From NCBI GenBank assembly GCA_002746255.1, contig NVWO01000001.1:97198-161197 (forward strand): 64,000 nt of DNA. The letters run 5' to 3'. Positions 22,574 through 45,936 of the stretch are shown one piece after another. The notes under the pieces were generated by a model that did not search any database, had not been told where the DNA came from, and was given only the letters and a program-made list of their open reading frames with translations. The DNA comes from Rhodospirillaceae bacterium (lineage in GTDB: Bacteria > Pseudomonadota > Alphaproteobacteria > GCA-2746255). How positions within the stretch are numbered: position 1 is the first letter of the stretch; each line of letters opens with the position of its first letter. The position numbers and the translations under genes were made by a program.

Positions 22574-22649
22574 GTCCCCTTCGTCTAGCGGTCCAGGACA
22601 TCGCCCTCTCACGGCGAAAACAGGGGTTCGATTCCCCTAGGGGATACCA
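22574..22649 (+). tRNA. tRNA-Glu (anticodon CTC)
   Basis: GTCCCCTTCGTCTAGCGGTCCAGGACATCGCCCTCTCACGGCGAAAACAGGGGTTCGATTCCCCTAGGGGATACCA forms a cloverleaf. It has a 7-bp acceptor stem with G1:U72, T-loop TTCGATT, anticodon loop CTCTCAC and an encoded CCA. It is near-identical to enterobacterial tRNA-Glu. Confidence 0.85.
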
Positions 22650-22650
22650 A
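22633..22650. repeat. attL-like 18-bp direct repeat (TCCCCTAGGGGATACCAA) covering the tRNA-Glu 3' end
   Basis: An exact 18-bp copy recurs at 43803-43820. Confidence 0.7.
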
Positions 22651-22696: not shown

Positions 22697-24466
22697 TTGC
22701 CAGCTTCCTGCGTTGTAACAACAACGTGCTACAGCAAGGAGGTTGTCTTGTCCGTGCGAAGCCCTGCACATTTAAAGCACCGAAGTGGCGTCTTCTACTT
22801 TCGCAGAGCCGTTCCAGAGCCGTTCCGTGACATCGTAGGGCGGCGTGAACTCTGTCTTTCGCTGCGGACTCGCGACGTTGCGACCGCTAGACTCCTTTGT
22901 CGATTGTGTTCGAATCTATTCGAGCAATTGATGGAGGCGGTGGACAGGATGCCTGGGCTCGGCAAGAACAAGGTCGATGCGATGATTCGTAGCTACTTCG
23001 AGAGGCTACTCTCGAAGACGGAAGAGATCGTCTTTCTTACGCCACAGGACCCATCGATCGACCCAGAGTTCGAAGCGACCTTAGCTGAGGAGGATAGGCA
23101 GCGCCTCCAGGCTGAATTAGCCAAGGGAAAATTCGATAAAATCACTCTGCTAGAGGCCCAAGAACTAGCCGGCACGGGAGCGAACACGCCCCATAACGTT
23201 TCGGCAGACAAATTCAGGGCAATTTGCAACGGGGTCTTGCGTGCACGAATAGAACAGCGCCGCATATACGTGGCCATGTTGCGCGGTGCGTTTGATGAAG
23301 TGAAATCGAAGGACCCTTTGTTTGATGGCGTAACTTCGACGGGAATGCCGCCTCTTCCCGGGGACGAGCCGGAGCCCAAACAACTTACATTGGAAAACGT
23401 TATCGATAAGTTTTGTGCCATGAAGGAAGTTCAGGACTGGACGTCGAAAACAGCCGACGAGAACCGAAGAATACTGGGGTGGTTCCGCGAACAAATCGGT
23501 CCAACAAAAAACATTAACGATATAAATATCGAAGACGTTCGAGAGTTTAGGGACACGCTCTTCAAACTCCCAAAACACTTCACAAAAACAGTAGCGTTTG
23601 AGGGCATGGGGCTTGCTGAGATTGCGGCGGCCAAACCTGCGGGGGAGAAATTGGGTGCAAGCACATTGCAGAAATATTTTGGCTGTGTGCGCTGGTTTCT
23701 TAGTTGGTGTGGGGACGAGTACGACATTGACACGTCGAAGATGCTGAAGCTCAAGATTGGGCATAAAATCAATAGCTTTGACGCCAGGGAGCCATTTTCC
23801 CACGATCAACTAAAACGGCTTTTTAAATCCCCTCAGTTTACCGGCCATAACTCGCCATCTCACCGGGCAACGCCTGGCAGCCTCCTCATCAAGGACGGTA
23901 AGTTTTGGATACCCCTGATAGGTCTCTACACCGGGATGAGGCTGGGCGAGATTGTCCAACTTCTCGTAACCGATGTGCGCGAAGAAAAGGACGTGCTTCA
24001 CTTCGATGTTAACAAAGGAGAAGGTGACGCCAAGAAGACGCTGAAGACCAAGAGCAGTGTGCGCCGCATTCCTATTCACCCGGACTTAATACGCATGGGG
24101 TTTATGGATCATGTAGCGTTACAGCGACAAAAGAATCCGAAGGGCAGGGTATTTTCCGAGATTAAGACGGGAAAGAATGGCGACCATAGTCACAACATGA
24201 GCAAGTATTTTGGACGCTACCTTAAGCTGGTTGGGGTCAAGACGGGTAAAACGACCTTTCACAGTTTCCGTCACAACTTCGCTGATGCGCTGCGAAATGC
24301 TGAAGCCGAGGACTCGAGGATTAAAGCGCTGATTGGTCATGCCGAAAAAAGCACGACTGGTATCTACGGGGTTGGGGTTTTGCTTAAGGTATTAGCGAAG
24401 GACGTGGAGCGGATTAACTACGATCTCGACTTTTCCCACCTCTTTATCAATGCCAAAGACATTTGA
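22697..24466 (+). CDS. Tyrosine-type site-specific integrase (long N-terminal arm-binding region)
   Basis: N-terminal RSGVFYFRRAVP box typical of island integrases. Catalytic region contains R(LGEI), HSFRH and Y (TTGIYGVG). Adjacent to the tRNA. The exact start codon is uncertain. Confidence 0.85.
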   Translation: MPASCVVTTTCYSKEVVLSVRSPAHLKHRSGVFYFRRAVPEPFRDIVGRRELCLSLRTRDVATARLLCRLCSNLFEQLMEAVDRMPGLGKNKVDAMIRSYFERLLSKTEEIVFLTPQDPSIDPEFEATLAEEDRQRLQAELAKGKFDKITLLEAQELAGTGANTPHNVSADKFRAICNGVLRARIEQRRIYVAMLRGAFDEVKSKDPLFDGVTSTGMPPLPGDEPEPKQLTLENVIDKFCAMKEVQDWTSKTADENRRILGWFREQIGPTKNINDINIEDVREFRDTLFKLPKHFTKTVAFEGMGLAEIAAAKPAGEKLGASTLQKYFGCVRWFLSWCGDEYDIDTSKMLKLKIGHKINSFDAREPFSHDQLKRLFKSPQFTGHNSPSHRATPGSLLIKDGKFWIPLIGLYTGMRLGEIVQLLVTDVREEKDVLHFDVNKGEGDAKKTLKTKSSVRRIPIHPDLIRMGFMDHVALQRQKNPKGRVFSEIKTGKNGDHSHNMSKYFGRYLKLVGVKTGKTTFHSFRHNFADALRNAEAEDSRIKALIGHAEKSTTGIYGVGVLLKVLAKDVERINYDLDFSHLFINAKDI

Positions 24467-27114: not shown

Positions 27115-27127
27115 TCCAGCCGCAGCA

Positions 27128-27973: not shown

Positions 27974-27979
27974 TCTGAT

Positions 27980-29439: not shown

Positions 29440-29650
29440 CGTTGACAAATATTTTGACAAATATTTCTGACAGCATGCAAACATTACGGCGATTGTCACA
29501 ATGTTAAATAAATGGCTAGAATCAAAGGCTTTTCACGAGTGCAATTGGTAATTTTAAATATAATTTGCGGGAAACAGACAGGGGCGGGTCCGCGTTGACC
29601 GCCTGTGACGTGGCGATCTTTGTGACAAAAATGCTGGTGTCAAAGTTAAA
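29440..29650. promoter_or_regulatory. AT-rich intergenic region dense in TGACA/TGTCA motifs
   Basis: TTGACAAATATTT occurs twice in tandem at 29442-29466. CTGACAGCA at 29467. Palindrome ATTGTCACAAT at 29492-29502. TGACA-N10-TGTCA at about 29612-29640. Lies between the ExoI gene and the next gene. Could be an operator or iteron array. Confidence 0.35.
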
Positions 29651-29908: not shown

Positions 29909-31012
29909 ATGAACGGAACCCATATTCTTGATCACTATCGGTCCCAGCTTGCCGACCAAGTTCTGAAGCGCGGCACGGATATTCCCAACTTCAATCCATT
30001 GGAAATCTCTCCGTGGTTAGCGATGAGCCTGATGCAAAAAGCTATCCGCAGAGGTCGGGTGGATTTTGCCCTTCGGAGTGCTGCAACACTTCTTAAAATT
30101 TCACCTGAACGACTTTGGCGGAGACTTGGCGTCACTGCATTTGAAGACATCGGCGTTGGTAACTTGGAAGTTGTTTCGCTGGTTACAGTGGCTTTGGCAG
30201 GAAAGCGATACCGCGCCAAGATTGGTGGGGAGTGGGCTGTTGCCTCCTATCTGATCGGCATCATGTGCGAAGCAAACAAATGCAGGGCAGCGGATGATCT
30301 TGCCGTTGTTTGTGACTGGCACCCAGATTACGAACAACCGCGCCTGGAATTGACCTACAAGCCGATGCTGGAATTATTGAAGGTAGTAGAGGGTGCAGGC
30401 TCCATACCCGAAAAGTCTTTGGCAACATGGTATGCCCTGGGGACTGACCGTTGCCGCTCTCCCGTATTGCGGGAACGACGCGGCGACCCTCAAGCGGTGT
30501 TTAATTATTTATGTGAGGCTGGGTTCCCTGACACCGTGGTGGAAATCGCCCGAGAGGGTTTCAGAAAAGGTAGCGGTGTTCTGGCGGCATTCATGGTCTT
30601 GCTAGCGCAGGCATCGCAACAATCCGTTCATTATGCAAAATCGGATGATTTTCCAGAAGAGGGAATGATTGGAGACGTTCCTGGGTGGGCTTTCGACATG
30701 CATGTCCGCGAAGGCAATGCGGCCATGAGCCGGTTCCTCAAAACGGATTGCGAAACAGTCCGTTGGATTGACGACGTTTTGCCCCCTACCGGTCGGACGA
30801 AGTTTCTCGGCGGTGTCTTGTTCCGGATTGAGAGTGGGCTTGTTTCAAGCAGGCACCGTTGGAAAGTCGGGGACGATTTGCGCCGCATGTCTGATTTTGA
30901 ATGCGAGGCTCTGAGACACAAGAGGATCGGGGAAGTCATGACGCTGCTTCGTGCAGATATGCCTATTCTCAACGAAGCCCGGCGAATGGTCGTTTCCGGG
31001 ATGGGGAAATGA
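29909..31012 (+). CDS. Hypothetical protein translationally coupled to a tyrosine recombinase
   Basis: Strong RBS AGGAGGAGAAGACGATG. 367 aa. No recognised motif. Its stop overlaps the start of the next gene (ATGA). Confidence 0.5.
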   Translation: MNGTHILDHYRSQLADQVLKRGTDIPNFNPLEISPWLAMSLMQKAIRRGRVDFALRSAATLLKISPERLWRRLGVTAFEDIGVGNLEVVSLVTVALAGKRYRAKIGGEWAVASYLIGIMCEANKCRAADDLAVVCDWHPDYEQPRLELTYKPMLELLKVVEGAGSIPEKSLATWYALGTDRCRSPVLRERRGDPQAVFNYLCEAGFPDTVVEIAREGFRKGSGVLAAFMVLLAQASQQSVHYAKSDDFPEEGMIGDVPGWAFDMHVREGNAAMSRFLKTDCETVRWIDDVLPPTGRTKFLGGVLFRIESGLVSSRHRWKVGDDLRRMSDFECEALRHKRIGEVMTLLRADMPILNEARRMVVSGMGK

Positions 31013-32010
31013 CCATGTATGCGAACAAACGACAGGCAGCCAATGAGACGCCTCTAACCTCTGATAACACCCACTTATCGGAGCCCATAACAACCGCCCT
31101 GGATGGCGGTGCAATTAACTGCACACAAGCTACGTCAGGCTATGTGCGGGCGGCCATCGCTGATAATACGCGACGAGCCTATCGCGCCGACTTAAATCAC
31201 TTCCTGGAATGGGGAGGCGCTATACCTGCAACGGACGTGATGGTTGCCGATTACCTCGCTGTTCATGCGGGGGCGTTGGCAGTTTCAACCTTGTGCCGGC
31301 GTATTGCATCAATTGCAAAGGCACACAGGGCAAGGGGCCTGCAAAGCCCGACTGTCTCTGACCTGATCAAGGCCACCATGCGGGGCATCAAACGCACTCA
31401 CGGGGCTCCCCAGCGCGGCTCAGCGCCCCTTCTTATCGAGGACCTTCTCCGGATCATGAGCGTTCTTGGAGACGGCATGAAAGACACCCGGGACCGGGCG
31501 TTGTTGTTGCTCGGCTTTGCTGGTGGGTTCAGGCGGTCCGAACTCGTTGCGCTCGACGTTGAAGACATCCAGTCCGTTCGCCAGGGAATGATCGTCACCA
31601 TCAAACGATCCAAAACGGATCAGGCTGGTGTGGGGCGGCAGATAGGTGTTCCGTTTGCGCGCGGTCGGTTCTGCCCGGTTAAGTCTGTGGAGGCGTGGTT
31701 GCAAGTCGCGGGCATATCCGATGGCCCTGTTTTTCGTTCCGTGGACCGGTACGGGCGGGTTGGAACGCAAAGACTATCAAGTGAGGCCGTCGCCAATGTG
31801 ATCAAGGCCAGGGTCGAGCAAGTTGGCTTCGACCCAACGCTCTATTCTGGCCATAGCCTGCGGGCGGGCCTTGCTACCAGTGCGGCGATGGCAGGGGTTA
31901 GCTCCCTCGATATCCGAAAACAGACCGGCCATGCATCGGACGCAATGCTTGCGCGGTACGTACGGTCCGGAGAGTTGTTTGTGAATAATGCCTCTGGGGC
32001 TTTATTGTAA
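31009..32010 (+). CDS. Tyrosine recombinase/integrase (XerC/D-like, SAM-like N-domain)
   Basis: Catalytic motifs R (GFRRSELVAL), HSLRAG and RY (MLARYVRSG). Start ATG at 31009 overlaps the upstream stop. Track ORF 30901 is too long. Confidence 0.8.
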   Translation: MTMYANKRQAANETPLTSDNTHLSEPITTALDGGAINCTQATSGYVRAAIADNTRRAYRADLNHFLEWGGAIPATDVMVADYLAVHAGALAVSTLCRRIASIAKAHRARGLQSPTVSDLIKATMRGIKRTHGAPQRGSAPLLIEDLLRIMSVLGDGMKDTRDRALLLLGFAGGFRRSELVALDVEDIQSVRQGMIVTIKRSKTDQAGVGRQIGVPFARGRFCPVKSVEAWLQVAGISDGPVFRSVDRYGRVGTQRLSSEAVANVIKARVEQVGFDPTLYSGHSLRAGLATSAAMAGVSSLDIRKQTGHASDAMLARYVRSGELFVNNASGALL

Positions 32011-32188: not shown

Positions 32189-32656
32189 ATGTCTCTCAAG
32201 AATGTCGTCGCAAGGCAATATCAGGAAAAGGTGGACCGGGCAGCGCAGGCTGCGCGCCAGGTCGGCATGCCCGCAGAGGGGTGGATATGCACGGTACGAA
32301 AAGCGCTGAATATGTCTGCCGCAGAGCTGGCGCGGCGGCTTGGTAAAAGTCGAGCGCTCGTATCCAAGACCGAAAAAGCCGAGCTTGATGGCGGCGTGAC
32401 GTTGAAAACCATGAAGGGCATGGCCGAGGCCATGGGGTGCCGGTTTGTCTACGCCATCGTGCCTGATAAGAGCATTGAGGACCTTCTAGCGGCGCAGGCC
32501 AGCAAGAAGGCGTGTCTGCTTGTCGAAAAATCAGGCCAACACATGGCGCTGGAAGCACAAAATCTGACGCCGGAACAAATGGACGCAGAGGAAAAGCGCA
32601 TCGCTCAAGAACTCATGCGCGATATGCCTTCGGATTTCTGGAGGGATAGATCATGA
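32189..32656 (+). CDS. XRE-family HTH protein (mobile mystery protein A-like, probable antitoxin/regulator of Fic)
   Basis: HTH_3-like segment MSAAELARRLGKSRALVSKTE. 155 aa. 4-nt overlap with the downstream Fic gene. Confidence 0.65.
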   Translation: MSLKNVVARQYQEKVDRAAQAARQVGMPAEGWICTVRKALNMSAAELARRLGKSRALVSKTEKAELDGGVTLKTMKGMAEAMGCRFVYAIVPDKSIEDLLAAQASKKACLLVEKSGQHMALEAQNLTPEQMDAEEKRIAQELMRDMPSDFWRDRS

Positions 32657-33240
32657 AAATGGATTATCCAGAAGGGGCGACGCCGCTTGATCCGGACGAA
32701 ATGGAAGGTCTGAAATTCAAGCACGTGACGACCAGGGGAGAGCTTGACCAATTGGAGCAGGCCAATATTCAGAACGGCCTCGTTTGGTTATCACACAGCC
32801 GGGAAAAAGATATCTTGAGCGAAGCGTTTGTTCGCAAGCTTCACGAGCAGCTCTTTGGCGAGGTCTGGAAATGGGCAGGCTCTTTCAGGCGCACCGGAAA
32901 GAATATCGGTGTTGATCCGCTGGCCATTAGCGTTGAGCTGCGGACACTTCTGGATGATATGCGCTATTGGGCTGAGCACGATACCTATCCGGAGATGGAA
33001 GCTGCTATTCGGTTCCATCACCGACTCGTTTTCATTCATCCGTTTCCCGACGGCAATGGCCGTCATGCCCGGATCATGACCGACGCTGTTTTGCAAAAGA
33101 TATTCGATAAAGAACCCATTGACTGGTCGGGTGGTCATGATCTTCAGGCCATGAACGAACGCCGAACCGAATACATTGTCGCTTTGAGGGCTGCTGATCG
33201 TGGTGACTATGTTCCAATCTTCAAGTTTGCAAGGTTGTAG
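32653..33240 (+). CDS. Fic/DOC family protein (mobile mystery protein B-like)
   Basis: Canonical Fic motif HPFPDGNGRHAR (HxFx(D/E)GNGRxxR). 195 aa. Confidence 0.85.
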   Translation: MKMDYPEGATPLDPDEMEGLKFKHVTTRGELDQLEQANIQNGLVWLSHSREKDILSEAFVRKLHEQLFGEVWKWAGSFRRTGKNIGVDPLAISVELRTLLDDMRYWAEHDTYPEMEAAIRFHHRLVFIHPFPDGNGRHARIMTDAVLQKIFDKEPIDWSGGHDLQAMNERRTEYIVALRAADRGDYVPIFKFARL

Positions 33241-33490: not shown

Positions 33491-33600
33491 AGATAGGCGC
33501 AAAACCGTTCGACCGCGCCCACCGAATGGCGTCATTTGGCGGCCTGTAAGCGGGGTTGCCTCGCATTTCTGAGCCTTGTTTCATTAGACTGACAGCACCT
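33491..33600. repeat. Left copy of ~100-bp imperfect direct repeat flanking the type I R-M cassette
   Basis: About 80-85% identity to 40948-41047. Shared core CCGAATGGCGTCAWTTGGCGGCCTG..AGCG.GGTTGCCT.GC.TTT.TGAG.CTTGTTT.ATTA...CTGACAGCA. Confidence 0.6.
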
Positions 33601-33696
33601 CAGCAGGCTATGGTTTTACCATCCACGGTGTAGGCCATATCCGGTCGCCATTTGTCGTTTCACAAGAACACCTGCAACAAGGAACCATTCGCACTC

Positions 33697-35439
33697 ATGA
33701 GCGACCCTAACCTTTCTGCCTTCATCTGGTCTGTCGCCGATCTTCTACGCGGGGATTACAAGCAATCGGAATACGGCAAGGTCATCCTGCCGTTTACCGT
33801 GCTCCGCCGTCTTGATTGCGTCCTGGAGCCGACCAAGGTCGACGTCCTGACCGAGTTGGCTAAACGCGAGAAGGCCGGGTTGAACCCAGAGCCGTTCCTG
33901 CTGCGTAAGGCGGGTGAACTTTTCTATAACACCTCACCGCTTGACCTGAAAAAACTGATGGGCGATCAGGACCACATCGGTGAGAACCTTCGCGCCTATA
34001 TGCAGGCCTTCTCGCCCGCCGTGCGTGACATCTTTGAGAGCTTCGAGTTTCATATCCAGATCGACCGGCTCGACAAGGCCAACCTGCTCTATCTGGTCAC
34101 GGAGAAGTTTGCCAATATCGACCTCCACCCGGACGTCGTCAGCAACGCCCAGATGGGCGCTGTGTTTGAGGAATTGATCCGCAAGTTCGCAGAGCTGTCC
34201 AACGAAACCGCCGGCGAGCACTTCACGCCCCGTGAGGTCATTCGCCTGATGGTCAATCTCCTGTTCATTGAGGATGACGACGCGCTGTCCAAGCCCGGTG
34301 TGGTCCGTTCGCTGTATGATCCCACCGCTGGCACCGGTGGCATGCTGAGCGTCGCCGAGGAGCACCTCGCCAGCCACAATCCGGATGCCCGGCTGGTTAT
34401 GTATGGGCAAGAGTTGAACCCAGAGTCCTACGCCATCTGCAAGGCTGACATGCTTATCAAGGGCCAGGACATTGCCAACATCATATTCGGCAACACCTTG
34501 TCCAACGACGGCCTGGGTGGACAGCATTTTGACTACATGCTGTCCAATCCGCCCTTTGGCGTGGAGTGGAAGAAGATCAAGCAGGAAATCGTCAAGGAAG
34601 CCGAGGAGAAGGGGTTCGATGGCCGCTTCGGCCCCGGCCTGCCGCGTATCAGTGACGGCTCGCTACTGTTCCTGCTCCATCTCGTCTCAAAGATGCGGCC
34701 CGCTGTCGATGGCGGCAGCCGCTTTGGCATCGTGCTCAATGGCTCGCCGCTGTTTACCGGTGGTGCGGGATCGGGCGAGAGCGAGATACGCCGTTACATG
34801 CTGGAGAACGACCTTGTCGAGGCCATCATCAGCCTGCCAAAGGACATGTTTTACAACACCGGCATCAGCACCTATATCTGGATCGTCAGCAACCGCAAGC
34901 CTGCCGCCCGCAAAGGCAAGCTACAGCTTATCGACGCCAGCAGCTTCTGGCATAAGATGCGCAAGAGCCTCGGCAGCAAGCGCAGGGAACTCGGCCCCGA
35001 GCATATCGAGGATATTACCCGCCTGTTCGGCGGTTTCGAGGAGTCTACCCGCGACGACGTCCCCATCAGCCGCATATTTGATAACGAGGACTTCGGCTAC
35101 CGCACGATCACTGTAGAGCGTCCCAAGCGCGATGAGGCAGGTGAGGTCGTGATTGGCCTTAAAGGCAAGGGCAAAGGCAAACCCGTTCCGGACACCAGCC
35201 TGCGTGATACCGAAAATGTGCCGCTTAGCGAGGAAGTGGAGACGTATTTTGAACGCGAGGTCCTGCCCCACGCCCCAGATGCGTGGATCGACGACGCCAA
35301 GAGCAAAATCGGTTACGAAATACCTTTCAACCGGCATTTCTATGTATTCAAGCCACCGCGTCCGCTTGATGAGATTGATGCCGAGCTAAAAGGCGTCACC
35401 GACAGAATTCTGACCATGATCAAAGGGCTGACGGCATGA
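33697..35439 (+). CDS. hsdM: Type I restriction-modification system methyltransferase subunit HsdM
   Basis: HsdM N-terminal domain ([11 protein letters not shown]), SAM-binding region, and N6-adenine MTase motif IV LSNPPFG. Track ORF starts at TTG 33652. ATG 33697 has an AAGGAA RBS. Confidence 0.9.
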
Positions 35440-36743
35440 GTTTTCCGCGTTACCCGGCCTACAAGGACAGCGGCGTGGAATGGCTGGGGGACGTGCCGGG
35501 GCAATGGGAGGTGGTGCCACTTAAGTATATTTCCACTCACAACGACGATGTGCTTGTTGAAAGCACTGACCCGAACAACGAGATTACCTATGTAGATATT
35601 TCCAGCGTGGACGGGGTGAACGGAATCGCTACGAAAGAAACAATGTCATTCTCAGCTGCTCCTTCAAGGGCACGGCGGCGCGTTAGGCATGGCGATGTGA
35701 TCGTCTCAACGGTTCGCACTTATCTCAAGGCAATTGCCGTAGTTCGTGACCCAGAAGACAGCCTCATTGTCTCGACTGGTTTTGCTGTAATACGACCGCG
35801 AGATGAACTTACACCTAACTATTTAGGTTTTTTGGTTTTCGCTAGTTACTTTGTCGAACAGATCATCGTCCGCTCAAAGGGCGTGAGTTACCCCGCAATC
35901 AACGCCGGTGAACTCGTCGCTATTTCGGTGCCACTTCCTTCACCCCCCGAACAAACCGCCATCGCTGCCTTCCTGGACCGCGAAACGGCAAAGATCGATG
36001 GGCTGGTGGCTGAGCAGCGGCGGCTGATTGACCTGCTGAAAGAAAAACGCCACACCGTCATCTCCCACGCCGTCACCAAAGGCCTGAACCCCGATGCCCC
36101 GATGAAGCCTTCCGGTATAGAATGGCTGGGGGACGTGCCGGAGCATTGGGAACTTCGAAAACTCTCGCAGTTATTTCGCGCAGGAAAAGGTAAGAACGGA
36201 CAAAAACTAACGAAGGAATATTGCGCCGCCAATGAAGGTGAATATCCGGTTTATAGTGGCCAGACTGAAAACGAAGGCGTCATGGGTACATGGGATCAGT
36301 TTGAATTTGACTTCGAAGATACGGGTGTTTTGTTTTCGACGACTGTTGGCGCGAAGGCCATGAATCTGCAGCAACTTTTTGGACGGTTCAGTCTGTCGCA
36401 AAACTGTATGATCATTTGGCCGACGTCGAGCCGATGCATTACGCGGTTTTTCTTTTACCACCTCCAGCCATTGTTTCGGTATCAGCGAGCCATGATTCCT
36501 GATCACATGCAGGCGTCTTTTAGGGTGGAAGATTTGTACGGATATTTCATTGCATTACCGCCAAGCGAAGAACAAACCGCCATCGCCGCCTTCCTCGACC
36601 GCGAAACGGCAAAGCTCGATGAGCTAATAGACGAAGCTCAACGCGCTGTGGATCTGCTGCAAGAACGCCGGACCGCGCTAATTTCTGCCGCCGTCACCGG
36701 CAAGATTGATGTTCGCGGGCTTGCCGATATGGAGGCCGCATGA
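35436..36743 (+). CDS. hsdS: Type I R-M specificity subunit HsdS (two TRDs)
   Basis: Two target-recognition domains separated by conserved repeats ([29 protein letters not shown] and [29 protein letters not shown]). ATGA overlaps on both sides. Confidence 0.85.
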
Positions 36744-37714
36744 TTGCCAAGCTTGAACGTGTGCCACTTCGGGAAGTCTGGAAGCATGAGGCTTATGACT
36801 TCACCCAGTGGCTTGAAGAAAACATCGACATTCTGAGCGAAGCGATAGACTTGACGCTTGTTAATGCCGAACGAGAAAAGAAAACAGAGAGTAGTTTCAG
36901 TGTTGATCTGGTCGCGGAAGATGAAAGCGGCGCGACCGTTATCATTGAGAACCAGCTAGAGAAGAGCAATCACGACCACCTCGGCAAGCTAATTACTTAT
37001 TTGACGGCGATGCAGGCTCGCACCGCGATTTGGATTGTCTCAGAACCTCGCCCGGAGCATGTGGCCGCAATCGTATGGCTGAACGAGTCTTCCAGTGCCG
37101 ATTTCTACTTACTAAAGATCGAGGCGATCCGTATCGGGGATTCGGCTCCCGCGCCTCTGCTGACGGTGATTGTAGGTCCGTCAGAAGAAGGTAAATCCGT
37201 GGGCCGTAGAAAGCAGGAGAGCGGCGAGCGTTATGACATCCGTCATCGATTCTGGTCACAACTGGTCCAGCACCCGAACGCCAAACTGCACAAACACATC
37301 ACACCGGGTAAGTACGCCTGGATCGGGCTCGGATCAGGAATGCGAGGGGTCGGGTTCAACTACGCAACCACCAAAGAACAATCGGGCGCCGAGGTCTACA
37401 TAGACCGGGGCAAGGAGTTGCGTGACGAAAATCTTGCGATCTTCGACCAGTTTCACGCGAAGAAAGACGAAATTGAGAAAGCTTTTGGCGGTCCATTGAG
37501 CTGGGAACGACTGGAAGGAAGACGAGCGTGCCAGATTCGTGCGCGTGTTGATGGCGGATACCGTAATCCAGAGGAACAGTGGAACGAAATCCACGGACGA
37601 ATGACGGATGCCATGAACAGGCTCGTTGACACGATCAGGCCGCAACTGAGGCACCTTCGAATTAAAAGTTCGTTGGAAAATGTTGGGTCCGAAGGTGCCA
37701 AACTATCGCCATGA
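36740..37714 (+). CDS. NucS-like PD-(D/E)xK / DUF4268-type protein embedded between hsdS and hsdR
   Basis: N-terminus LREVWKHEAYDFTQWL...VDLVAEDESGATVIIENQLEKSNHDHLGKLITY is the (D)...ENQ...HDHLG signature of a family often found inside type I R-M operons. ATGA-coupled to both neighbours. Confidence 0.6.
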   Translation: MIAKLERVPLREVWKHEAYDFTQWLEENIDILSEAIDLTLVNAEREKKTESSFSVDLVAEDESGATVIIENQLEKSNHDHLGKLITYLTAMQARTAIWIVSEPRPEHVAAIVWLNESSSADFYLLKIEAIRIGDSAPAPLLTVIVGPSEEGKSVGRRKQESGERYDIRHRFWSQLVQHPNAKLHKHITPGKYAWIGLGSGMRGVGFNYATTKEQSGAEVYIDRGKELRDENLAIFDQFHAKKDEIEKAFGGPLSWERLEGRRACQIRARVDGGYRNPEEQWNEIHGRMTDAMNRLVDTIRPQLRHLRIKSSLENVGSEGAKLSP

Positions 37715-40700
37715 ACCTGCACAAAGAAATCAGCTTCGAAGCGGAGATTTGTGAATATCTCGCCCAGCACGGCTGGCTCTATGCCGAGGGCGATGCGAAG
37801 GCCTACGACCGGGCGCGGGCGCTGTTCCCGGCGGATGTGCTTGCATGGGTGCAGGCAGCTCAACCCAAGGCCTGGGAAACCCTGACCAAGAACCACGGTG
37901 CGCAGGCCGGTGAGACGCTGTTGACGCGTTTACGGGATCAGCTCGACCAGCGCGGCACACTGGATGTGTTGCGCCACGGCATCGAATTGCTGGGCCTGCA
38001 GAAGCCATTGCTGGTAGCACAGTTCAAGCCCGCGCTGGCCATCAACCCAGATATCCTCAAACGTTACGCCGTCAATCGTCTGCGGGTGGTTCGCCAAGTG
38101 CGATATTCGCTACACAACGAGAACAGCATTGACTTCGTGCTGTTCCTAAACGGCCTGCCGATGGCGACAGTGGAACTGAAGACGGACTTCACCCAGAGCA
38201 TTCATGACGCAATCGATCAGTATCGCTTCGACCGCAACCCAAAACCCAAGGGGCAAGCTGCTGAGCCTCTGCTGTCCTTCCCGAATGGTGCGCTGGTGCA
38301 TTTCGCGGTGAGCAACAGCGAGGTCCACATGGTGACCAAGCTGGCTGGCCCCGCCACGGTGTTCCTGCCGTTCAACCAGGGGAACGAGGGGGCAGCAGGT
38401 AACCCAGTGAACCCGGCAGGTGGCCACCGCACGGCATATCTTTGGGAGCAAGTATGGGAACGCGATAGCTGGCTGGAAATCCTGGGCCGCTACATGGTCG
38501 CCGAACGGGATAAAAAGAAGAAGATCAACAAGATCATCTTCCCCCGGTTTCACCAGCTCGACGCAACACGCAAGATACAGGCCGCCGTATTGCAGGACGG
38601 CCCGGGGGGCAAATATCTGATTCAGCACTCGGCTGGCTCGGGCAAGACCAACTCCATCGCTTGGTCCGCGCACTTCCTCGCAGAACTGCACGACGCCGAG
38701 AACAAGAAGGTCTTTGACACTGTGGTTGTGGTCTCCGACCGCAATGTCATTGACGCCCAACTTCAGGACGCCCTTTTCGATTTCGAGAGGCAAACCGGCG
38801 TCGTGGCAAAGATCACGTCGGAGGAAAGCAGCAAGAGTGCCGCCCTGGCCGACGCCCTATCCGGGACCAAGAAGATCGTCGTCTGTACCATCCAGACCTT
38901 CCCCTTTGCCATGAATGCCGTGCACGAACTTTCGGCCACTCAGAACAAACGCTTTGCGGTGATTGCCGACGAGGCCCACAGCTCGCAAACCGGCGAAGCT
39001 GCGGCGAAGCTGAAGGCGGTGCTGACCGCAGAGGAGCTTGAGGAACTGGGCGACGGCGGAGAGGTCAGTACGGAGGATATCCTGGCGGCTGAAATGGCGG
39101 CGCGGGCCGATGATGATGGCATCACGTATGTAGCGTTCACGGCGACGCCGAAAAACAAGACCATTGAAATCTTCGGCACCCGGCCCGACCCCTCGCGCAA
39201 ACCGGCGAAGGATAATGTGCCGACGCCATTTCACGTCTACTCCATGCGCCAGGCCATAGAGGAAGGGTTCATCCTCGACGTGCTGCAGAACTACACCCCT
39301 TACAGCTTGGCGTTCAAGCTGGCCCAAGGGGGCAAGGAGATCGACGAGAAAGAGGTCGAACGCAGTACCGCACTTAAAAAGATTATGGGTTGGGTGAAGC
39401 TCCACCCGTACAACATCGCGCAGAAAGTACAAATCGTCGTCGAGCACTATCGCGAATACGTGGCCCCGATGCTGAACGGGCAGGCCAAGGCGATGGTCGT
39501 CGTCAGCAGTCGGCTGGAAGCGGTGCGTTGGAAACTGGCCATCGAGAAGTACATCAAGGAGCAGAGTTACCAGATCGGGACGCTGGTGGCCTTCTCTGGC
39601 GAGGTGAATGACAAGGAATCTGGACCAGATGGTTTCAAAGAGAACGGCAAGATTTTGAATCCCAACCTGAAGGGACGCGACATCCGCGAGGCGTTCAAAG
39701 GCAGCGAGTATCAAATCCTGCTTGTGGCAAACAAGTTCCAGACGGGCTTCGACCAACCGTTGTTATGTGCGATGTACGTCGATAAACGGTTGGCGGGCAT
39801 CCAGGCCGTGCAGACCTTATCGCGCTTGAACCGCGCCTATCCCGATAAAGACAAGACCTACGTGCTGGACTTTGTGAACGATACAGATGAGGTCCTGGAG
39901 GCCTTCAAGGCGTATCACACCACGGCAGAACTCTCGGCAACGACCGACCCAAACCTCGTCTTTAACCTTCGTGCCAAGCTCGATGCCGCTGGGCACTACG
40001 ACAGCTTCGAGGTCGACCGCGTTGTTGAAGTGGAACTCGACCCTAACGCGAAGCAAAGCCAATTGGTTGCTGCGCTGGAGCCAGTACAAGACCGCCTGAT
40101 GAAGCGCTACAAGGCCGCTCAGCAAGCCTTGCAGGTTGCCAGGGAAAGTGGGGATGACGCAGCCATCACGGTCGCTCAGGACGAACAGAACGCGCTGATC
40201 CTGTTCAAGGCGGACATGGGCGCTTACTTGAGGCTATACACTTTCCTGTCGCAAATCTTTGACTACGGAAATACCGATATTGAAAAACGCGCCATCTTTT
40301 ACAAGCGCCTGATCCCGCTGCTGGAGTTTGGCCGAGAGCGCGAGGGTATTGACCTCTCTAAAGTCACCTTGACCCATCATCACCTGAAAGACCTCGGTAA
40401 GCGAAACTTACCTTTGTCCGATGGCAAGACGCCCAAACTTGACCCGATCACCGAAGCAGGCAGCGGCAGTGTTCAGGAAAAAGAGAAAGCTCTCCTCAAC
40501 GAGATCATCGAGAAGGTGAACGACCTCTTCGAGGGCGAGCTGACAGACCAAGACAAACTGATTTATGTGAACGATGTGATCAAAGGGAAGTTGCTGGAGT
40601 CGAATACGTTGAGGCAACAGGCGACAAACAACACGAAAGAACAGTTCGCCAACTCACCGGACCTCCAAACCGAGCTGATGAACGCAATCATGGGTGCACT

Positions 40701-40824
40701 GGACGCACATAATTCAATGAGCACGCAGGCTCTAAACTCCGATAAGGTCCAGCGCGGACTGAAGGACGTATTGTTGAACACCGTTGGGCTTTACGAGTCG
40801 CTGCGCGATCAGTCTGCAAGTTAA
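37711..40824 (+). CDS. hsdR: Type I restriction endonuclease subunit HsdR
   Basis: HSDR_N nuclease region. SF2 helicase Walker A HSAGSGKT and DEAH box VIADEAHSSQ. Helicase C domain. 1037 aa. Confidence 0.9.
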   Translation: MNLHKEISFEAEICEYLAQHGWLYAEGDAKAYDRARALFPADVLAWVQAAQPKAWETLTKNHGAQAGETLLTRLRDQLDQRGTLDVLRHGIELLGLQKPLLVAQFKPALAINPDILKRYAVNRLRVVRQVRYSLHNENSIDFVLFLNGLPMATVELKTDFTQSIHDAIDQYRFDRNPKPKGQAAEPLLSFPNGALVHFAVSNSEVHMVTKLAGPATVFLPFNQGNEGAAGNPVNPAGGHRTAYLWEQVWERDSWLEILGRYMVAERDKKKKINKIIFPRFHQLDATRKIQAAVLQDGPGGKYLIQHSAGSGKTNSIAWSAHFLAELHDAENKKVFDTVVVVSDRNVIDAQLQDALFDFERQTGVVAKITSEESSKSAALADALSGTKKIVVCTIQTFPFAMNAVHELSATQNKRFAVIADEAHSSQTGEAAAKLKAVLTAEELEELGDGGEVSTEDILAAEMAARADDDGITYVAFTATPKNKTIEIFGTRPDPSRKPAKDNVPTPFHVYSMRQAIEEGFILDVLQNYTPYSLAFKLAQGGKEIDEKEVERSTALKKIMGWVKLHPYNIAQKVQIVVEHYREYVAPMLNGQAKAMVVVSSRLEAVRWKLAIEKYIKEQSYQIGTLVAFSGEVNDKESGPDGFKENGKILNPNLKGRDIREAFKGSEYQILLVANKFQTGFDQPLLCAMYVDKRLAGIQAVQTLSRLNRAYPDKDKTYVLDFVNDTDEVLEAFKAYHTTAELSATTDPNLVFNLRAKLDAAGHYDSFEVDRVVEVELDPNAKQSQLVAALEPVQDRLMKRYKAAQQALQVARESGDDAAITVAQDEQNALILFKADMGAYLRLYTFLSQIFDYGNTDIEKRAIFYKRLIPLLEFGREREGIDLSKVTLTHHHLKDLGKRNLPLSDGKTPKLDPITEAGSGSVQEKEKALLNEIIEKVNDLFEGELTDQDKLIYVNDVIKGKLLESNTLRQQATNNTKEQFANSPDLQTELMNAIMGALDAHNSMSTQALNSDKVQRGLKDVLLNTVGLYESLRDQSAS

Positions 40825-40947
40825 CCTGTCTGACGCCCGGTATTCCAAGTCTATGAAAAAGACCCTGCAAAAGTTCGCAGCCGCTCATGCCTTGATCCAC
40901 AATCATTTCAACCACGACTGCTGCCTCAACCGCCGCGATATTTTCAA

Positions 40948-41047
40948 GCAGAACCGTTCTGCCGCTCTGGCCGAATGGCGTCAATTGGCGGCCTGAAAGC
41001 GAGGTTGCCTGGCGTTTATGAGGCTTGTTTAATTATGCTGACAGCAT
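40948..41047. repeat. Right copy of ~100-bp imperfect direct repeat flanking the type I R-M cassette
   Basis: See 33491-33600. Begins inside the last codons of hsdR and extends about 220 nt into the downstream intergenic region. Confidence 0.6.
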
Positions 41048-41243
41048 CCTTTAGCTAGCTAAAGCTCCATAAGCCATTCAAAATGGGCGTTGGCTCTTGA
41101 TCACAGAGGAGGCGCGGCGCTGGATGACAGGAGACAATATCGAGCCCCATTAATATCTATTTTTCCGGAGCATCGGGCTATATTTGTAGGAAAATAATGC
41201 GCCAATCTTCCACTGACTAAAATACGGATAACTCAGAAGCCCA

Positions 41244-42344
41244 ATGAAATTTTTCACGAAAGACGAAATGGCGAAGTCTGAAAGACTTCGCCTAAAGCAA
41301 GAACGGAAGGGCTTTCTCCGGAAGCTAACTGTTGAAGAGCATGAAAATCTAAAGAACCAACTGATACTACGCTCGCATCATCAAATTTCTGCCAGCTTGG
41401 TGCCACAGAAAAACCGAGTGTCTATTGAGTTGCCGAAGGAAATCTCACTGGCAAACAACTACGAACCTACAATCAAATTTATAAACCAACTGCGGAATAC
41501 TGTCTTGACCAAGCGGCTTCCAGTTTTTCTGCATTTTGATAATGTTGCATCAGTTAGTCCAGCCGCGGCACTTCTTATGACCGCTGAAATATATAGGTGT
41601 AGAAATCTGCGACCCGGCCGTGCAGGATTGGTGCCCGTTAACGGAAATTGGCCTTCAGACAAAAAGGCTCGCAAAGTCCTTAGTGATATGGGCTTTTACA
41701 AGCTCATGCAGCTGCCAAACAACCTTTCTGTTCTGAATGCAAAAGAGATGGACAATACAATCCATTTAGGCTTTGCCACATTTAACCACGTAGATGCAGA
41801 ACAAATAGCCTTTTTTCATCACAATCTATTAGAAAAAATCGATTTCAATCTAACAAATATGGAAAGCAAAAGGCTTCAAGGTGCAATAATTGAAGCCATC
41901 GGGAATGCATCGGAGCACGCCTATAAAATTAAAACAGAGCATCAATTTTTAAGTAATAGGTCGTGGATATCAGGATACGTTGATGTTCCAAATAAAGAGC
42001 TTATGTTCATGGTGTTAGATCAAGGCGTAGGTATCCCGAAGACACTTGATCCCACCCTTATTGAACGAGCGTTATCGATCGGAAAGTTTCGTGGCTCGAC
42101 GCCAACAGATTCTGAATTGATTGAACGTGCAGCTGAGTTTCGACGGACATCAACAGGGAATAGCGGTAGAGGAAAAGGTGTTGAGACGATGAAGCGTTTT
42201 ATTCGCACCATCGACGATGGCGAACTCAAGATATTTAGCAATCGTGGCCTTTATAGATATTCGTCTGCTGGAGCCGAGACTAGGGATGATCACGATGGAT
42301 CAATTGGCGGAACGTTAGTACAATGGCGACTGCATCAGCAATAA
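41244..42344 (+). CDS. GHKL-superfamily ATPase (histidine-kinase-like ATPase domain without HisKA), unknown N-terminal domain
   Basis: C-terminal Bergerat-fold motifs: N-box EAIGNASEHAY, G1 VLDQGVGIP, G2 GNSGRGKGV. No phospho-acceptor His box was recognised. 366 aa. Confidence 0.6.
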   Translation: MKFFTKDEMAKSERLRLKQERKGFLRKLTVEEHENLKNQLILRSHHQISASLVPQKNRVSIELPKEISLANNYEPTIKFINQLRNTVLTKRLPVFLHFDNVASVSPAAALLMTAEIYRCRNLRPGRAGLVPVNGNWPSDKKARKVLSDMGFYKLMQLPNNLSVLNAKEMDNTIHLGFATFNHVDAEQIAFFHHNLLEKIDFNLTNMESKRLQGAIIEAIGNASEHAYKIKTEHQFLSNRSWISGYVDVPNKELMFMVLDQGVGIPKTLDPTLIERALSIGKFRGSTPTDSELIERAAEFRRTSTGNSGRGKGVETMKRFIRTIDDGELKIFSNRGLYRYSSAGAETRDDHDGSIGGTLVQWRLHQQ

Positions 42345-42379
42345 TGAATTCTGATAGACTCTAAGTTGGATGTGAACGG

Positions 42380-42709
42380 GTGGATAGCAATAGACATTTG
42401 ATATCGGTGCCCAAAGATTTTTCAAAAACGCCGGGCACAAGATATATTAAGCAAGGGCCGTGCAGCGGTGAAAAATTCAGGACGTCTTGTCTGATTCCTG
42501 CGCTTGAAAAATACGACTTGTTGATTGTCGATCTAGACGGCACTGCCGGCTACGGTTCATCTTTCATTGATGAAGCATTTGGGGGGCTGATCCGAAGAGA
42601 AGGATTCAATGCTGAAGATTTATTGCGCCGTATAAAAATCAAATCGGACGAGGAAATCGAACTCATAGCCGATGTGAAAAAGGCTTTCCGTGATGCTCGG
42701 CCGAATTAG
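42380..42709 (+). CDS. STAS-like (DUF4325-type, anti-sigma-antagonist-like) small protein
   Basis: 109 aa. The segment KYDLLIVDLDGTAGYGSSFIDEAFGGLI resembles STAS/SpoIIAA-like DUF4325 proteins that pair with GHKL ATPases. This is a similarity judgement, not a search result. Confidence 0.45.
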   Translation: MDSNRHLISVPKDFSKTPGTRYIKQGPCSGEKFRTSCLIPALEKYDLLIVDLDGTAGYGSSFIDEAFGGLIRREGFNAEDLLRRIKIKSDEEIELIADVKKAFRDARPN

Positions 42710-42714
42710 ACGAT

Positions 42715-43263
42715 ATGCACAGGTCATCTGTTAGAAAACCAGAAGAACGTGTTCAGAATGTTTATAAGTGCTGTAGCGGCAAGTCGGATGGCGGCGATAT
42801 CTGGGGGGCAATTCTGCCAACGGCAATGGCGGGTGTTGGATTCTACGTTTTCCATAAATTAGCCATGCGTAGACAAAAACGGGCCGAAGTTTTCGATACT
42901 TTTCGTGACCTAAAAATGATCATTGACGATATAGACCACTTGGCGACCATTGCATGGCGAAAAACAGGGGGCGACGCGGTAAAAGATGGTGGAGTTGTGG
43001 AAATTCGCCGGAAAATTGCGCGTTGTCGAGAAGATCTCAGGCTACTAACTATGTTGGATGAGAAATTTGAAGTAGTAGCTAATCCGCTGAATGATTATAG
43101 AAGGGCGATTGACGAAGAATTAGACGATTCAGGAAACGCATTGTCCACTATCGATGACATCAATCGGTTGGGCCGGCTTGATTGGGCTATAGAAGGGATA
43201 ATGCCAAAAGCAACGGCCCTAAGGCTTAATTTAAATAAAGCCATCGCTAATATTTATGGCTGA
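42715..43263 (+). CDS. Hypothetical protein with one TM helix (third gene of the GHKL operon)
   Basis: Starts 6 nt after the STAS-like ORF. Predicted helix ILPTAMAGVGFYVFHKLAM. No motif recognised. Confidence 0.4.
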   Translation: MHRSSVRKPEERVQNVYKCCSGKSDGGDIWGAILPTAMAGVGFYVFHKLAMRRQKRAEVFDTFRDLKMIIDDIDHLATIAWRKTGGDAVKDGGVVEIRRKIARCREDLRLLTMLDEKFEVVANPLNDYRRAIDEELDDSGNALSTIDDINRLGRLDWAIEGIMPKATALRLNLNKAIANIYG

Positions 43264-43802: not shown

Positions 43803-43820
43803 TCCCCTAGGGGATACCAA
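43803..43820. repeat. attR-like 18-bp direct repeat TCCCCTAGGGGATACCAA
   Basis: Exact copy of the tRNA-Glu 3' end at 22633-22650. Confidence 0.7.
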
Positions 43821-43986
43821 GCATTTCAACGTGCTAGCCCACCAACCGGCGGGCTTTTTTCATTTGTACGGAAATTATACGGAAAAGGTGGCGCGGAAAA
43901 ATGTTGAAACCGCCCCTTTAGAGGCGTTTTACATTATCTATCGCCCTTGGCCTGCTTAAACTTAGTGGCGCTGTTTGCACTGCAGC

Positions 43987-44292
43987 TTAGTTTGCGAATT
44001 CGCCAAGCTCCTTCCGAACTTGCTCAGTCGCCTGTAGTGAACACGATGCCGAATCCTTAAAAACCTTAAATTCTTTCGGGGCTGGCAATTGCATCGTGAA
44101 ATCTGACATGCCATCACCAATGTTGAACCCTACCCATGGCCTATCCGCCAATGATAAAACGAATTGTGAAGATAGGTTTGGACTTCGGGTCATATCAGTC
44201 ATTGCGAGCCAACCATCGTTTTCTGGAGATGGCTCATTAAGATAGAAACTTGTCGTTGATAAATTTTGATATCGAAGAAATGCGTTCGTCAA
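43987..44292 (-). CDS. Hypothetical protein (possibly the 3' half of a disrupted gene)
   Basis: An ORF of 101 aa immediately downstream of, and co-directional with, the 44308-44586 ORF, with a 15-nt gap. Confidence 0.3.
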   Translation of the reverse strand: MTNAFLRYQNLSTTSFYLNEPSPENDGWLAMTDMTRSPNLSSQFVLSLADRPWVGFNIGDGMSDFTMQLPAPKEFKVFKDSASCSLQATEQVRKELGEFAN

Positions 44293-44307
44293 GTTATGTC
44301 TAGCTAC

Positions 44308-44586
44308 CTAGCCTTGCCGTGCTTCGGAGACTACAAGCTTGAACACAATAGATGGTATTTTATTTTTGAAATAAAATTCATTTACTGACCCTTGGATTCC
44401 AAAAACTCTCCCATCTTTTGTTGCTGCAATATTGAAATGAACGCCACAACCATCGATGCGCCCATCCTTGGTTTGCATGAGCGGCCTATAAGTAGCCTCT
44501 ATTATATCCATCACACCCCCGGCAAAACTGTAGGCTGGCGTAAATAATGCTGCCAAAACGGCAATAGAATAAATTGCGACCCTCAT
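44308..44586 (-). CDS. Hypothetical secreted protein (signal peptide)
   Basis: N-terminus MRVAIYSIAVLAALFTPAYSFAGG is signal-peptide-like. 92 aa. Confidence 0.35.
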   Translation of the reverse strand: MRVAIYSIAVLAALFTPAYSFAGGVMDIIEATYRPLMQTKDGRIDGCGVHFNIAATKDGRVFGIQGSVNEFYFKNKIPSIVFKLVVSEARQG

Positions 44587-44728
44587 AACAAATCTCCCCT
44601 TGCAAGAATGTCAGCCTATTTTAGCCAGTGTCTTTCTTGCTGTCTTTATCATCTCGCCAACGCGCTTACGTTCCTTCCTGGCCTCATTCGTATAAAGTCC
44701 GTGTCTGCCCAAGGCTCGGGGAGTCCTT

Positions 44729-45568: not shown

Positions 45569-45936
45569 AAAACTTCCTTTATAGGAAAGAGAAAAGCCGC
45601 AAAAAAAGGCAAAGTAATAATGTTGCGTGCCAATAGCTAGCTACCGCTGCGTTATTTCCACAACCAATCTAGGAAACAAATATCACCATAATCTATTGAT
45701 ATAACTGCTTAGTTGGCAATCAAGAGAATCAACCAAGCGTAGCTATTGGGCTGGTTTTCTTCCCTATAGAGACACCAAAACCGCGCCGCCTACCCGCCGA
45801 CCGTCGCCTTGCCCTTGCCGCTATAGCGGGTCGTGAAACAGCCGATGCCAGACCGAAATCGGCGCGATCAGCCGAGGACCAGGTTGTTCTGGTCCGTGTG
45901 TTCAAAAACTTTTCCGTAGATATCGACCGTCGTTGT

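Follow-up and report, generated by a model that had tools for sequence, protein, structure and literature searches.

Why is a type I R-M operon in an environmental Rhodospirillaceae MAG bracketed by two similar sequences of about 100 bp? A preliminary description of this locus reported the repeats and suspected that they stem from mobile DNA, and both points were borne out. Comparison of the window, i.e., the whole 64-kb stretch of DNA analyzed here, with itself by blastn identified positions 33499-33597 and 40948-41046 as a gapless, direct, imperfect repeat of 99 nt (82 identical positions, 83%; E 2e-24), in which the longest stretch identical between the two copies comprises 13 nt. No other pair of long, dispersed repeats exists around the R-M genes, and neither self-comparison nor homology searches detected a third copy in the window. 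The previously quoted motifs CCGAATGGCGTCA(T/A)TTGGCGGCCTG and CTGACAGCA are present in the left as well as the right copy. With respect to the bounds, the right copy indeed pairs with the left one from position 40948 onward, but its homology to the parent element reaches back to 40858. Moreover, it does not begin in the last codons of hsdR, as had been proposed, since this gene terminates 124 bp before position 40948.

We conclude, with a probability of roughly 85%, that the repeats are what survives of the 3' ends of two insertion sequences (ISs) of the IS6 family (IS26-like), inert today, whose history we infer from what is left of them. They are a known kind of mobile-element debris and not a new regulatory or cassette-swapping element. 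The similarity between the copies was probably inherited from a common IS lineage. Coordinates of the relics and of the surrounding features are compiled in Table 1.

Table 1. Features of the R-M operon, its flanking IS relics, and the tRNA-Glu island (window positions)
Feature	Position	Strand	Basis
tRNA-Glu (CTC), island integration site	22574..22649	+	ARAGORN; Rfam tRNA 60.6 bits
attL, 18-nt TCCCCTAGGGGATACCAA, 3' end of tRNA-Glu	22633..22650	+	exact 18-mer repeated at 43803-43820
Island integrase (DUF6538 + Phage_integrase)	22697..24466	+	Pfam
HTH gene paired with the Fic-domain gene	32189-32656		
Fic-domain gene, last before the left relic	32653..33240	+	Pfam Fic 3e-14; PADLOC PDC-S04 / SoFic
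Left IS6-family relic	33499..33599	+	blastn to 3' ends of IS6 relatives (33499-33599/33602), family alignment of ends, tblastn
hsdM (580 aa)	33697..35439	+	Pfam HsdM_N + N6_Mtase; gene call
hsdS	35436..36743	+	Pfam Methylase_S, two stretches
DUF4268 gene between hsdS and hsdR	36740..37714	+	Pfam DUF4268 3.8e-25; PADLOC PDC-S11 6e-137
hsdR (1037 aa), stop 40822-40824	37711..40824	+	Pfam HSDR_N, SWI2_SNF2, ResIII, T1R_D3-like
Right IS6-family relic	40858..41049	+	blastn to annotated IS6 family transposase genes; blastn 40858-41048/41049; tblastn
Three-gene module after the right relic: HATPase-like, DUF4325 (STAS-like), 182-aa ORF	41244..43263	+	Pfam
attR, 18-nt copy of tRNA-Glu 3' end, right island border	43803..43820	+	exact repeat

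Assignment to the IS6 family is based on both the encoded peptides and the element ends. The right copy matches annotated IS6 family transposase genes in blastn searches, and in tblastn it is 84% identical (E 2e-20) to residues 187-231 of the transposase of the full-length relative L015, with residues 217-231 of which the left relic aligns. The L015 protein comprises 231 aa, and its NF033587 ("IS6 family transposase") score of 177.9 bits exceeds the cut-off of 125. In both relics, the homology with intact elements ends exactly at the conserved IS tip ...CTGACAGCACC, which closes each of them. The left relic (101 bp, approximately nt 704-806 of an IS of ~806 bp) has kept the last 16 transposase codons, and the right relic (192 bp, approximately nt 614-806) the last 45 codons and the stop, within a 47-codon ORF at 40853-40996; in each, these are followed by an untranslated tail of ~50 nt and the right terminal inverted repeat. 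The core of the latter is the motif CTGACAGCA mentioned above. The left relic ends with ...ACTGACAGCACC at 33599, its inverted repeat tip being identical to that of the intact relative L036, and the right relic ends with ...GCTGACAGCATCC at 41049; in reverse complement, the inverted repeats read GGTGCTGTCAG (33589-33599) and GGATGCTGTCAG (41038-41049). Both relics are truncated at the 5' side and are oriented like each other and like the R-M operon. The right copy extends 90 bp further 5' (40858-40947), where the left copy has unrelated DNA.

The preliminary description held that the DNA rather than the protein is conserved, considering that the peptides differ. This apparent difference arose because the reading frame had not been the same for both copies. 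Read as transposase, the right copy encodes ...QNRSAALAEWRQLAA followed by the stop, and the left copy ...QNRSTAPTEWRHLAAC. Nor do both copies carry an in-frame stop after GGCGGCC: the right copy alone has one (TGA, 40994-40996), whereas the stop of the left relic is mutated from TGA to TGT (33545-33547), and the TAA noted there belongs to another frame. The relics encode the C-terminal tail of the transposase only, and no catalytic domain. No left inverted repeat or left IS end was detected anywhere in the window, and tblastn and related searches found neither a transposase nor a further IS6 piece in the window beyond the two relics. Plasmid records contained no match to the 258 bp to the left of the left relic or to the 97-bp spacer.

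A tblastn search of the genome collection detected 390 relatives. Intact relatives, found in many alphaproteobacterial MAGs, are 805 to 808 bp long and encode a 231-aa IS6-family transposase (NF033587) between inverted repeats of 16 nt, GGCATTGTCAGA(G/C)TAA, matching at 13 to 16 of the 16 positions. The IS26 terminal inverted repeat is GGCACTGTTGCAAA. Members of the IS6 family, such as IS26, IS257/IS431, IS1216, and IS6100, are about 700 to 890 bp long and are filled by a single ORF (PMC7986276). The parent elements resemble them in their size of ~806 bp with one 231-aa transposase, in short terminal inverted repeats featuring an initial GG and a CTGT motif (GGCATTGTCAGA...), and in being multicopy and often clustered in alphaproteobacterial genomes. 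They differ in that 8-bp target duplications were not seen: none of 27 intact relatives had identical flanking 8-mers, offsets of +/-3 nt included. Since the window retains only the last 101 and 192 bp of the elements, short of the family length range and devoid of transposase and left end, its copies are fragments and not complete members.

Searches with the 47-aa peptide retrieved best non-self matches of 89 to 91% identity, mostly 52-aa fragments. A preferred truncation point, considered in view of many such 52-aa ORFs, was rejected, because truncations in 80 loci are spread over residues 77-180 (tblastn); many truncated copies lie at contig ends, 5' fragments are present too, and the apparent bias resulted from searching with the transposase C terminus. 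IS6 fragments are common in the relatives' genomes, where they lie clustered, represent either end, and point either way. At locus L034, an unrelated gene is enclosed by two directly oriented copies of the same IS lineage, the only direct pair; the two copies at L078 are inverted (tblastn). Among 85 family 3' ends, the two relics are each other's best match, albeit narrowly (77% versus 75% and 73%), and share the tail features CTTGTTT-[C/A]ATTA, unseen in other family sequences. A 34-nt degenerate pattern fitting both relics had no match in a metagenome collection from which the source contig itself is absent. A looser pattern of tail plus inverted repeat gave 5 metagenome matches, all dismissed as 23-nt chance matches without transposase homology.

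The relics lie in intergenic spacers inside a defence-rich island of ~21.2 kb, which is bounded on one side by a tRNA-Glu gene with an adjacent integrase gene and on the other by a copy of the tRNA 3' end. Between them, the intact, co-oriented hsdM, hsdS, and hsdR genes, with the DUF4268 gene embedded, have reading frames overlapping by 4 nt; hsdM starts 97 bp past the left relic tip, and the right relic starts 33 bp past hsdR. Self-comparison of the window also revealed an internal repeat in hsdS. Among 8000 HsdR homologs, the best non-self match is 85% identical. The closest HsdR relatives (84-85%) belong to beta- and gammaproteobacteria, whereas the host is a Rhodospirillaceae MAG, indicating that the cassette was acquired horizontally. 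G+C content changes at the relics, from 50.6% in the left island DNA to 55.4% in the cassette and 44.9% in the right island DNA. Homology between the cassette and its relatives does not extend beyond the coding region (33690-40825), and no IS6 trace was detected beside six loci with related cassettes, which represent four different contexts. All four assemblies of the locus have the same arrangement, and exact look-ups of the HsdR, Fic, and HATPase proteins all returned this locus. No second occurrence of the IS-cargo unit emerged from exact-protein look-ups, related cassettes, and metagenome pattern scans. A circle or deletion junction between the relics was considered as a cause of assembly breaks and rejected (expected at 33522 and 40983, observed at 33529 and 40980/40999).

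Neither relic retains its left inverted repeat, its promoter, or anything of the catalytic part of its transposase gene, and today the relics probably do nothing. Given a single inverted repeat per relic, the missing transposase, an identity of 83%, and an identical run of at most 13 nt, neither relic should be able to transpose. Targeted cointegration of the IS26 type requires that both the transposases and the DNA at the reacting end be identical (PMC7885326); the relics would be unable to join such a reaction and would presumably not be usable as a substrate for homologous recombination. Predicted folds were no better than those of shuffled sequence (z-scores of +0.09, +0.20, -0.75, and -0.65) and differed between the copies, Rfam matched only the tRNA and nothing in the relics, and neither relic contains a promoter- or terminator-like site. 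Thus, the relics look inert, having neither transposase nor left end, structure, Rfam match, promoter, or terminator, and showing no further copies, no cargo variation, and no identical run beyond 13 nt.

Other explanations of the pair must be weighed against this background. The repeats bracket a defence operon in a defence-rich island, and the HATPase-DUF4325 gene triad next to them recurs at loci L093-L097, beside different type I R-M systems in other genomes, which might suggest active sites at which defence cassettes are exchanged. We regard such a recombination hotspot, put forward in the preliminary description, as extremely improbable. It fails by the yardstick proposed along with it, because neither a further copy in the window nor variation in cargo was found; the R-M neighbors of the related HATPase-DUF4325 modules vary without an IS6 remnant, and no homolog of hsdS, DUF4268, hsdR, or neighboring island genes flanks any of 80 related IS6 loci (tblastn with six queries). 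The uniform assemblies, the two short-matched copies, and the missing transposase and left end likewise speak against it, as does the need of IS26-type targeted recombination for identical ends and transposases. Highly improbable, too, is a functional RNA or DNA module kept by selection in two places, whether as terminator, regulatory hairpin, small RNA, or outward -35 box for hsdM. IS6-family ends commonly provide the -35 box of hybrid promoters (PMC7986276), and the relic tip indeed has CTGACA (TTGACA in L015), 5 nt from its end and 97 bp upstream of hsdM; however, no acceptable -10 was located 16 to 18 nt after CTGACA, and no sigma-70-like promoter was found in either relic. A 6-bp G/C stem follows the transposase stop in the left copy, but the reported G/C palindrome folds no better than shuffled sequence and is not conserved among related elements, the stem region being the most variable part of family members. 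In addition, what follows the right copy, 194 bp away, is a different and unrelated gene. R-M units flanked by ~100-bp direct target duplications were reportedly described by Furuta, Abe and Kobayashi in NAR in 2010, and the segment shared here is also ~100 bp long. A single pre-existing IS6 relic might therefore have been duplicated when the R-M unit inserted, or by circle recombination, making the pair a segmental duplication and not two ISs. This is very unlikely, considering that the upstream (left) copy should then have kept more 5' IS sequence, whereas the downstream (right) copy is the one that extends further, and considering the 17% divergence and unequal decay of the copies.

Regarding the history of two IS6-family relics, we lean slightly, at about even odds, toward separate insertions of related, already diverged IS copies at the operon borders, each later truncated. 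The right relic is near the family consensus, with 2 of 31 conserved residues changed (intact-control maximum, 2) and differences from intact copies by codon position of 5.3/3.2/17.1, against 4.7/2.4/18.5 between intact copies, although the codon-position argument is based on only 16 shared codons. In the left relic, 4 of 13 conserved residues are changed and the stop codon is lost. Flanking copies that arise from IS26-type events are identical (PMC7986276, PMC7885326); therefore, the 17% asymmetric divergence is more easily explained by different ages or isoforms, the two isoforms being our inference, as no intact parent was found for either relic (best non-self peptide match, 91%). The abundance of clustered IS6 fragments in the relatives' genomes also fits separate insertions. 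On the other hand, target duplications are not seen in intact relatives, and direct orientation tightly around one operon is the signature of an IS6-family pseudo-compound transposon. The relics might be two arms of one such former transposon or cointegrate product that delivered hsdM-hsdS-DUF4268-hsdR, with later 5' deletions locking the cassette. We consider this sub-hypothesis on history, compatible with the IS6-relic identity, tentative and somewhat less than probable. IS6-family members flank cargo "invariably as direct repeats" via a cointegrate mechanism (PMC7986276), which makes acquisition of the block as a unit, as previously suggested, a legitimate if unproven history. The mutual resemblance of the relics, the G+C steps, the horizontal acquisition of the cassette, and the direct pair at L034 point in the same direction, the first two also away from separate insertions. 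However, a single event would have yielded copies identical at birth, and here the right one has hardly decayed and the left one clearly; both ISs would require separate 5' truncations, no second instance of the unit came to light, related cassettes show no IS6 trace, and cassette homology is limited to the coding region. IS26-type pseudo-compound transposons (Tn4352, Tn6023, and Tn610; PMC7986276) likewise consist of cargo between two directly oriented IS6-family copies, but in the present pair the copies are truncated and share only 83% identity, a type I R-M operon takes the place of a resistance gene, and no recurrence of the unit was found. Lacking the defining complete, near-identical copies, the pair would at most be a decayed pseudo-compound transposon. 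Doubtful, in our view, is the fuller claim of an IS6-family (IS26-like) pseudo-compound transposon, now surviving as decayed arms, that captured a complete type I R-M operon with its embedded PDC-S11/DUF4268 gene and moved it into the tRNA-Glu defence island of an environmental alphaproteobacterium.

Truncated IS26 remnants with one inverted repeat are scars at module boundaries, left by successive IS-mediated rearrangements in the resistance regions that plasmids and genomic islands carry. The relics described here are likewise partial copies that keep one inverted repeat at module boundaries, but the defence island that holds them belongs to an environmental Rhodospirillaceae MAG and is not a clinical resistance region.

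Our analysis explains a feature resembling a new recombination or regulatory module by well-known mobile-element debris, and it corrects the annotation of the locus, in that hsdR ends at 40824 and the 47-codon ORF downstream is a transposase pseudogene fragment. As matters stand, the relics do no more than indicate where modules of a mosaic defence island meet. If the pseudo-compound history were true, the locus would be a modest example of IS26-type mobilization of a defence operon outside clinical bacteria, and IS26-style cointegrate mobilization, known mainly for antibiotic resistance genes, would extend to the shuttling of entire defence operons in uncultured lineages from the environment.

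The type I R-M operon hsdM-hsdS-DUF4268-hsdR is bracketed by a direct repeat, as the preliminary description had proposed. A repeat search of the window returned one family, the pair 33499-33597 and 40948-41046, which align in register and without gaps over 99 nt at 83% identity. A MAFFT alignment of the two copies agreed with this, and a blastn comparison of the left region with the entire window recovered the right copy at 82/99 positions (E 2e-24), every other match having an E value of 0.4 or worse. Other details of that description had to be revised. The right copy had been placed as starting in the last hsdR codons, but the hsdR stop lies at 40822-40824, outside the repeat, and the copy sits in a separate 47-codon ORF (40853-40996), which is also called as a gene. 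The apparent difference between the encoded peptides was an artefact of different reading frames; in the common frame, used here instead, the peptides are QNRSAALAEWRQLAA* for the right copy and QNRSTAPTEWRHLAAC for the left. The supposed conserved G/C palindrome is a short G/C stem, and the family alignment varies more there than anywhere else.

Both copies are fragments of IS6-family members. Plasmids of Ruegeria and Sulfitobacter carry 'IS6 family transposase' genes with 3' ends that match the right copy, and a back-translated search, taking one genome per species, yielded 390 relatives, the best 80 of which are mostly from alphaproteobacterial MAGs, e.g., of Methyloceanibacter, Hyphomicrobiales, Kiloniellaceae, and Micropepsaceae. 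In L015, an intact full-length relative, the matching segment forms the C-terminal end of a 231-aa ORF, which scores 177.9 bits against NCBIfam NF033587 'IS6 family transposase' (cut-off, 125 bits). Intact relatives are 805-808 bp long and end in 16-nt inverted repeats, GGCATTGTCAGA(G/C)TAA, with 13-16 of the 16 positions matching. In size and terminal inverted repeats they agree with the IS6 family, whose members are about 800 bp long with a single ORF and short conserved inverted repeats (PMC7986276). Among the retrieved loci L004-L083, 8-bp target duplications were found at 0 of 27 intact 805-808-bp relatives, although the IS6 family reputedly makes them, and about a fifth of the loci have a second IS6 piece at most 3 kb away in either orientation.

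When 85 3' ends of the family are aligned, the similarity of both copies to the family ends exactly at the conserved tip ...CTGACAGCACC; this makes the 'CTGACAGCA' motif noted earlier the core of the right inverted repeat. Neither other IS6 pieces nor a left inverted repeat or a transposase were found in the window, and the two copies qualify neither as complete ISs nor as parts of an intact pseudo-compound transposon. The repeat is real but has an ordinary explanation, with nothing beyond the known behaviour of the IS6 family.

Features of the IS6 relics, the R-M operon, and the surrounding island (window positions)
Feature	Position	Description	Evidence
Left relic	33499-33599	Transposase residues 217-231 onward	blastn + tblastn
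Right relic	40858-41049	Transposase residues 187-231, stop, ~53-nt tail, right inverted repeat	blastn + tblastn
DUF4268 gene	36740-37714	Between hsdS and hsdR, 4-nt overlaps	PADLOC candidate PDC-S11, 6e-137
tRNA-Glu	22574-22649	Island border, integrase adjoining	
Island border repeat	22633-22650 / 43803-43820	Exact 18-nt copy of tRNA-Glu 3' end	
SbcB-like exonuclease	27980-29350	Matches a model annotated DRT	PADLOC model 'RTasSbcB', 7e-100
HTH-Fic gene pair		PDC-S04 / SoFic, in the island	
HATPase triad	41244-43263	HATPase-like (366 aa), DUF4325 STAS-like (109 aa), unannotated ~180-200-aa ORF (182 aa here)	

A terminator, regulatory module, or small RNA, as had been considered for the repeat, found no backing. 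The folding energies of both copies are the same as those of shuffled sequence (z +0.09, +0.20, -0.75, -0.65) and their predicted structures differ, a tRNA was the sole Rfam match and lies outside the relics, and promoter and terminator consensus scans returned nothing in either relic. IS6 ends can donate -35 boxes (PMC7986276); a hybrid promoter formed from the outward, -35-like CTGACA at the relic tip, at 33589-33594 in the left relic, was rejected, there being no suitable -10 downstream. For targeted cointegration by the IS26 family, the transposases must be identical, and so must the DNA at the reacting end (PMC7885326). Because fold, promoter, and terminator signals are absent, and because each relic has one inverted repeat, no transposase, and a longest run of 13 bases identical to the other, our inference is that both are inert scars. 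A recombination hotspot for swapping defence cassettes, for which the preliminary description had looked to further copies and cargo variation, did not hold up either; neither was found.

Three other assemblies of the locus, 100% identical to the window, end contigs within the relics (33529-33583 and 40980-40999; L002, L003, L085, L088, and L089). Among the ENA contigs the overlap is exactly 55 nt (33529-33583), and among the Logan contigs it is 30 nt (33529-33558) and 20 nt (40980-40999). Therefore, another sequence in the sample has the same k-mer starting at 33529. The right relic was excluded as its source, and the break points are not those that a simple circle or deletion junction would give. 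From a second sample, one contig of this island (L090; JGI 3300033050) lacks 28 bp (window 29456-29483) and turns to unrelated sequence after window 34753, mid-hsdM; it reflects either chimerism in the assembly or a rearrangement at strain level.

The relics and the R-M operon lie inside an island of ~21.2 kb that looks defence-rich. None of the three ORFs upstream of the SbcB-like gene (24482-25570, 25864-27114, and 27056-27973) matched a Pfam family, nor was a reverse transcriptase recognised in this stretch (24482-29350). The HTH-Fic pair is preceded by two overlapping ORFs, about 367 and 333-369 aa long, at 29909-32010; the first is without a family match and the second is a tyrosine recombinase. 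The island thus contains a second recombinase module, which suggests that its origin is composite. The HATPase triad is conserved (also in L093, 10001-12094, and L094, 10001-12071) and occurs elsewhere in islands in Hwanghaeella and on TARA metagenome contigs, adjoining integrases and unrelated type I R-M systems, with no IS6 found beside them. PADLOC and NCBIfam searches with the triad gave no match, and it could represent a defence or anti-sigma-like module that has yet to be described. Just past attR, a stretch of roughly 1.9 kb with very low G+C (45%; 43821-45700) and a DUF4238 gene may be a remnant of an older adjacent island. Elsewhere in the window, at least 8 units of a 15-nt tandem repeat (TTTCCACCACCGGCA-like; 57909-58073) lie within a minus-strand ORF (57899-59011) and would encode a Gly-rich repeat protein.

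The source is a Rhodospirillaceae MAG, and the locus has the same arrangement in four assemblies. The closest relatives of its HsdR come from beta- and gammaproteobacteria and reach no more than 84-85% identity. With the related cassettes L091 and L092, homology at the nucleotide level is limited to the coding region (33690-40825). Neighbourhoods differ among six related cassette loci (L091, L092, and L103-L106; four distinct contexts), and no IS6 traces were found in any of the six. Their hsdS-hsdR interval is empty or holds either DUF4268 or Peptidase_M78 and DUF4411; since related cassettes have nothing or the latter pair there, this junction looks like a variable accessory-gene slot in this R-M family. 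The DUF4268 gene also showed a weak NucS-like match.

We consider it about an even bet (probability roughly 0.5) that the relics go back to related copies inserted in two separate events. The right relic is near consensus: of 31 conserved residues only 2 are changed, and by codon position it differs from intact copies (5.3/3.2/17.1) much as these differ from one another (4.7/2.4/18.5). The left relic has changes at 4 of 13 conserved residues and no longer has its stop codon. In the relatives' genomes, IS6 fragments are common and clustered, comprising both ends and both orientations. These observations count for separate insertions, albeit weakly, because the coding overlap of the relics is only 16 codons.

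Copies from one IS26-type event are identical at the start, and the 17% difference between the relics thus speaks against their being arms of one pseudo-compound transposon, an origin that we regard as possible though somewhat less probable. It would account for two relics in direct orientation tight around one operon, at distances of 97 bp and 33 bp, and for the stepwise change in G+C at the relics (50.6% left of the cassette, 55.4% inside, 44.9% right). The relics are also each other's best match, if marginally (77% versus 75% and 73%), and have tail features in common in the family alignment. Moreover, the IS6 family habitually flanks cargo as direct repeats (PMC7986276), and the direct IS pair at L034 exemplifies this in the relics' own IS lineage. 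A long target duplication is disfavoured as the source of both relics, because extra 5' IS sequence is held by the downstream and not the upstream copy.

That an IS26-style transposon formerly moved the whole R-M/PDC-S11 defence operon strikes us as possible but less likely than not; such a transfer, if true, would be of modest interest.
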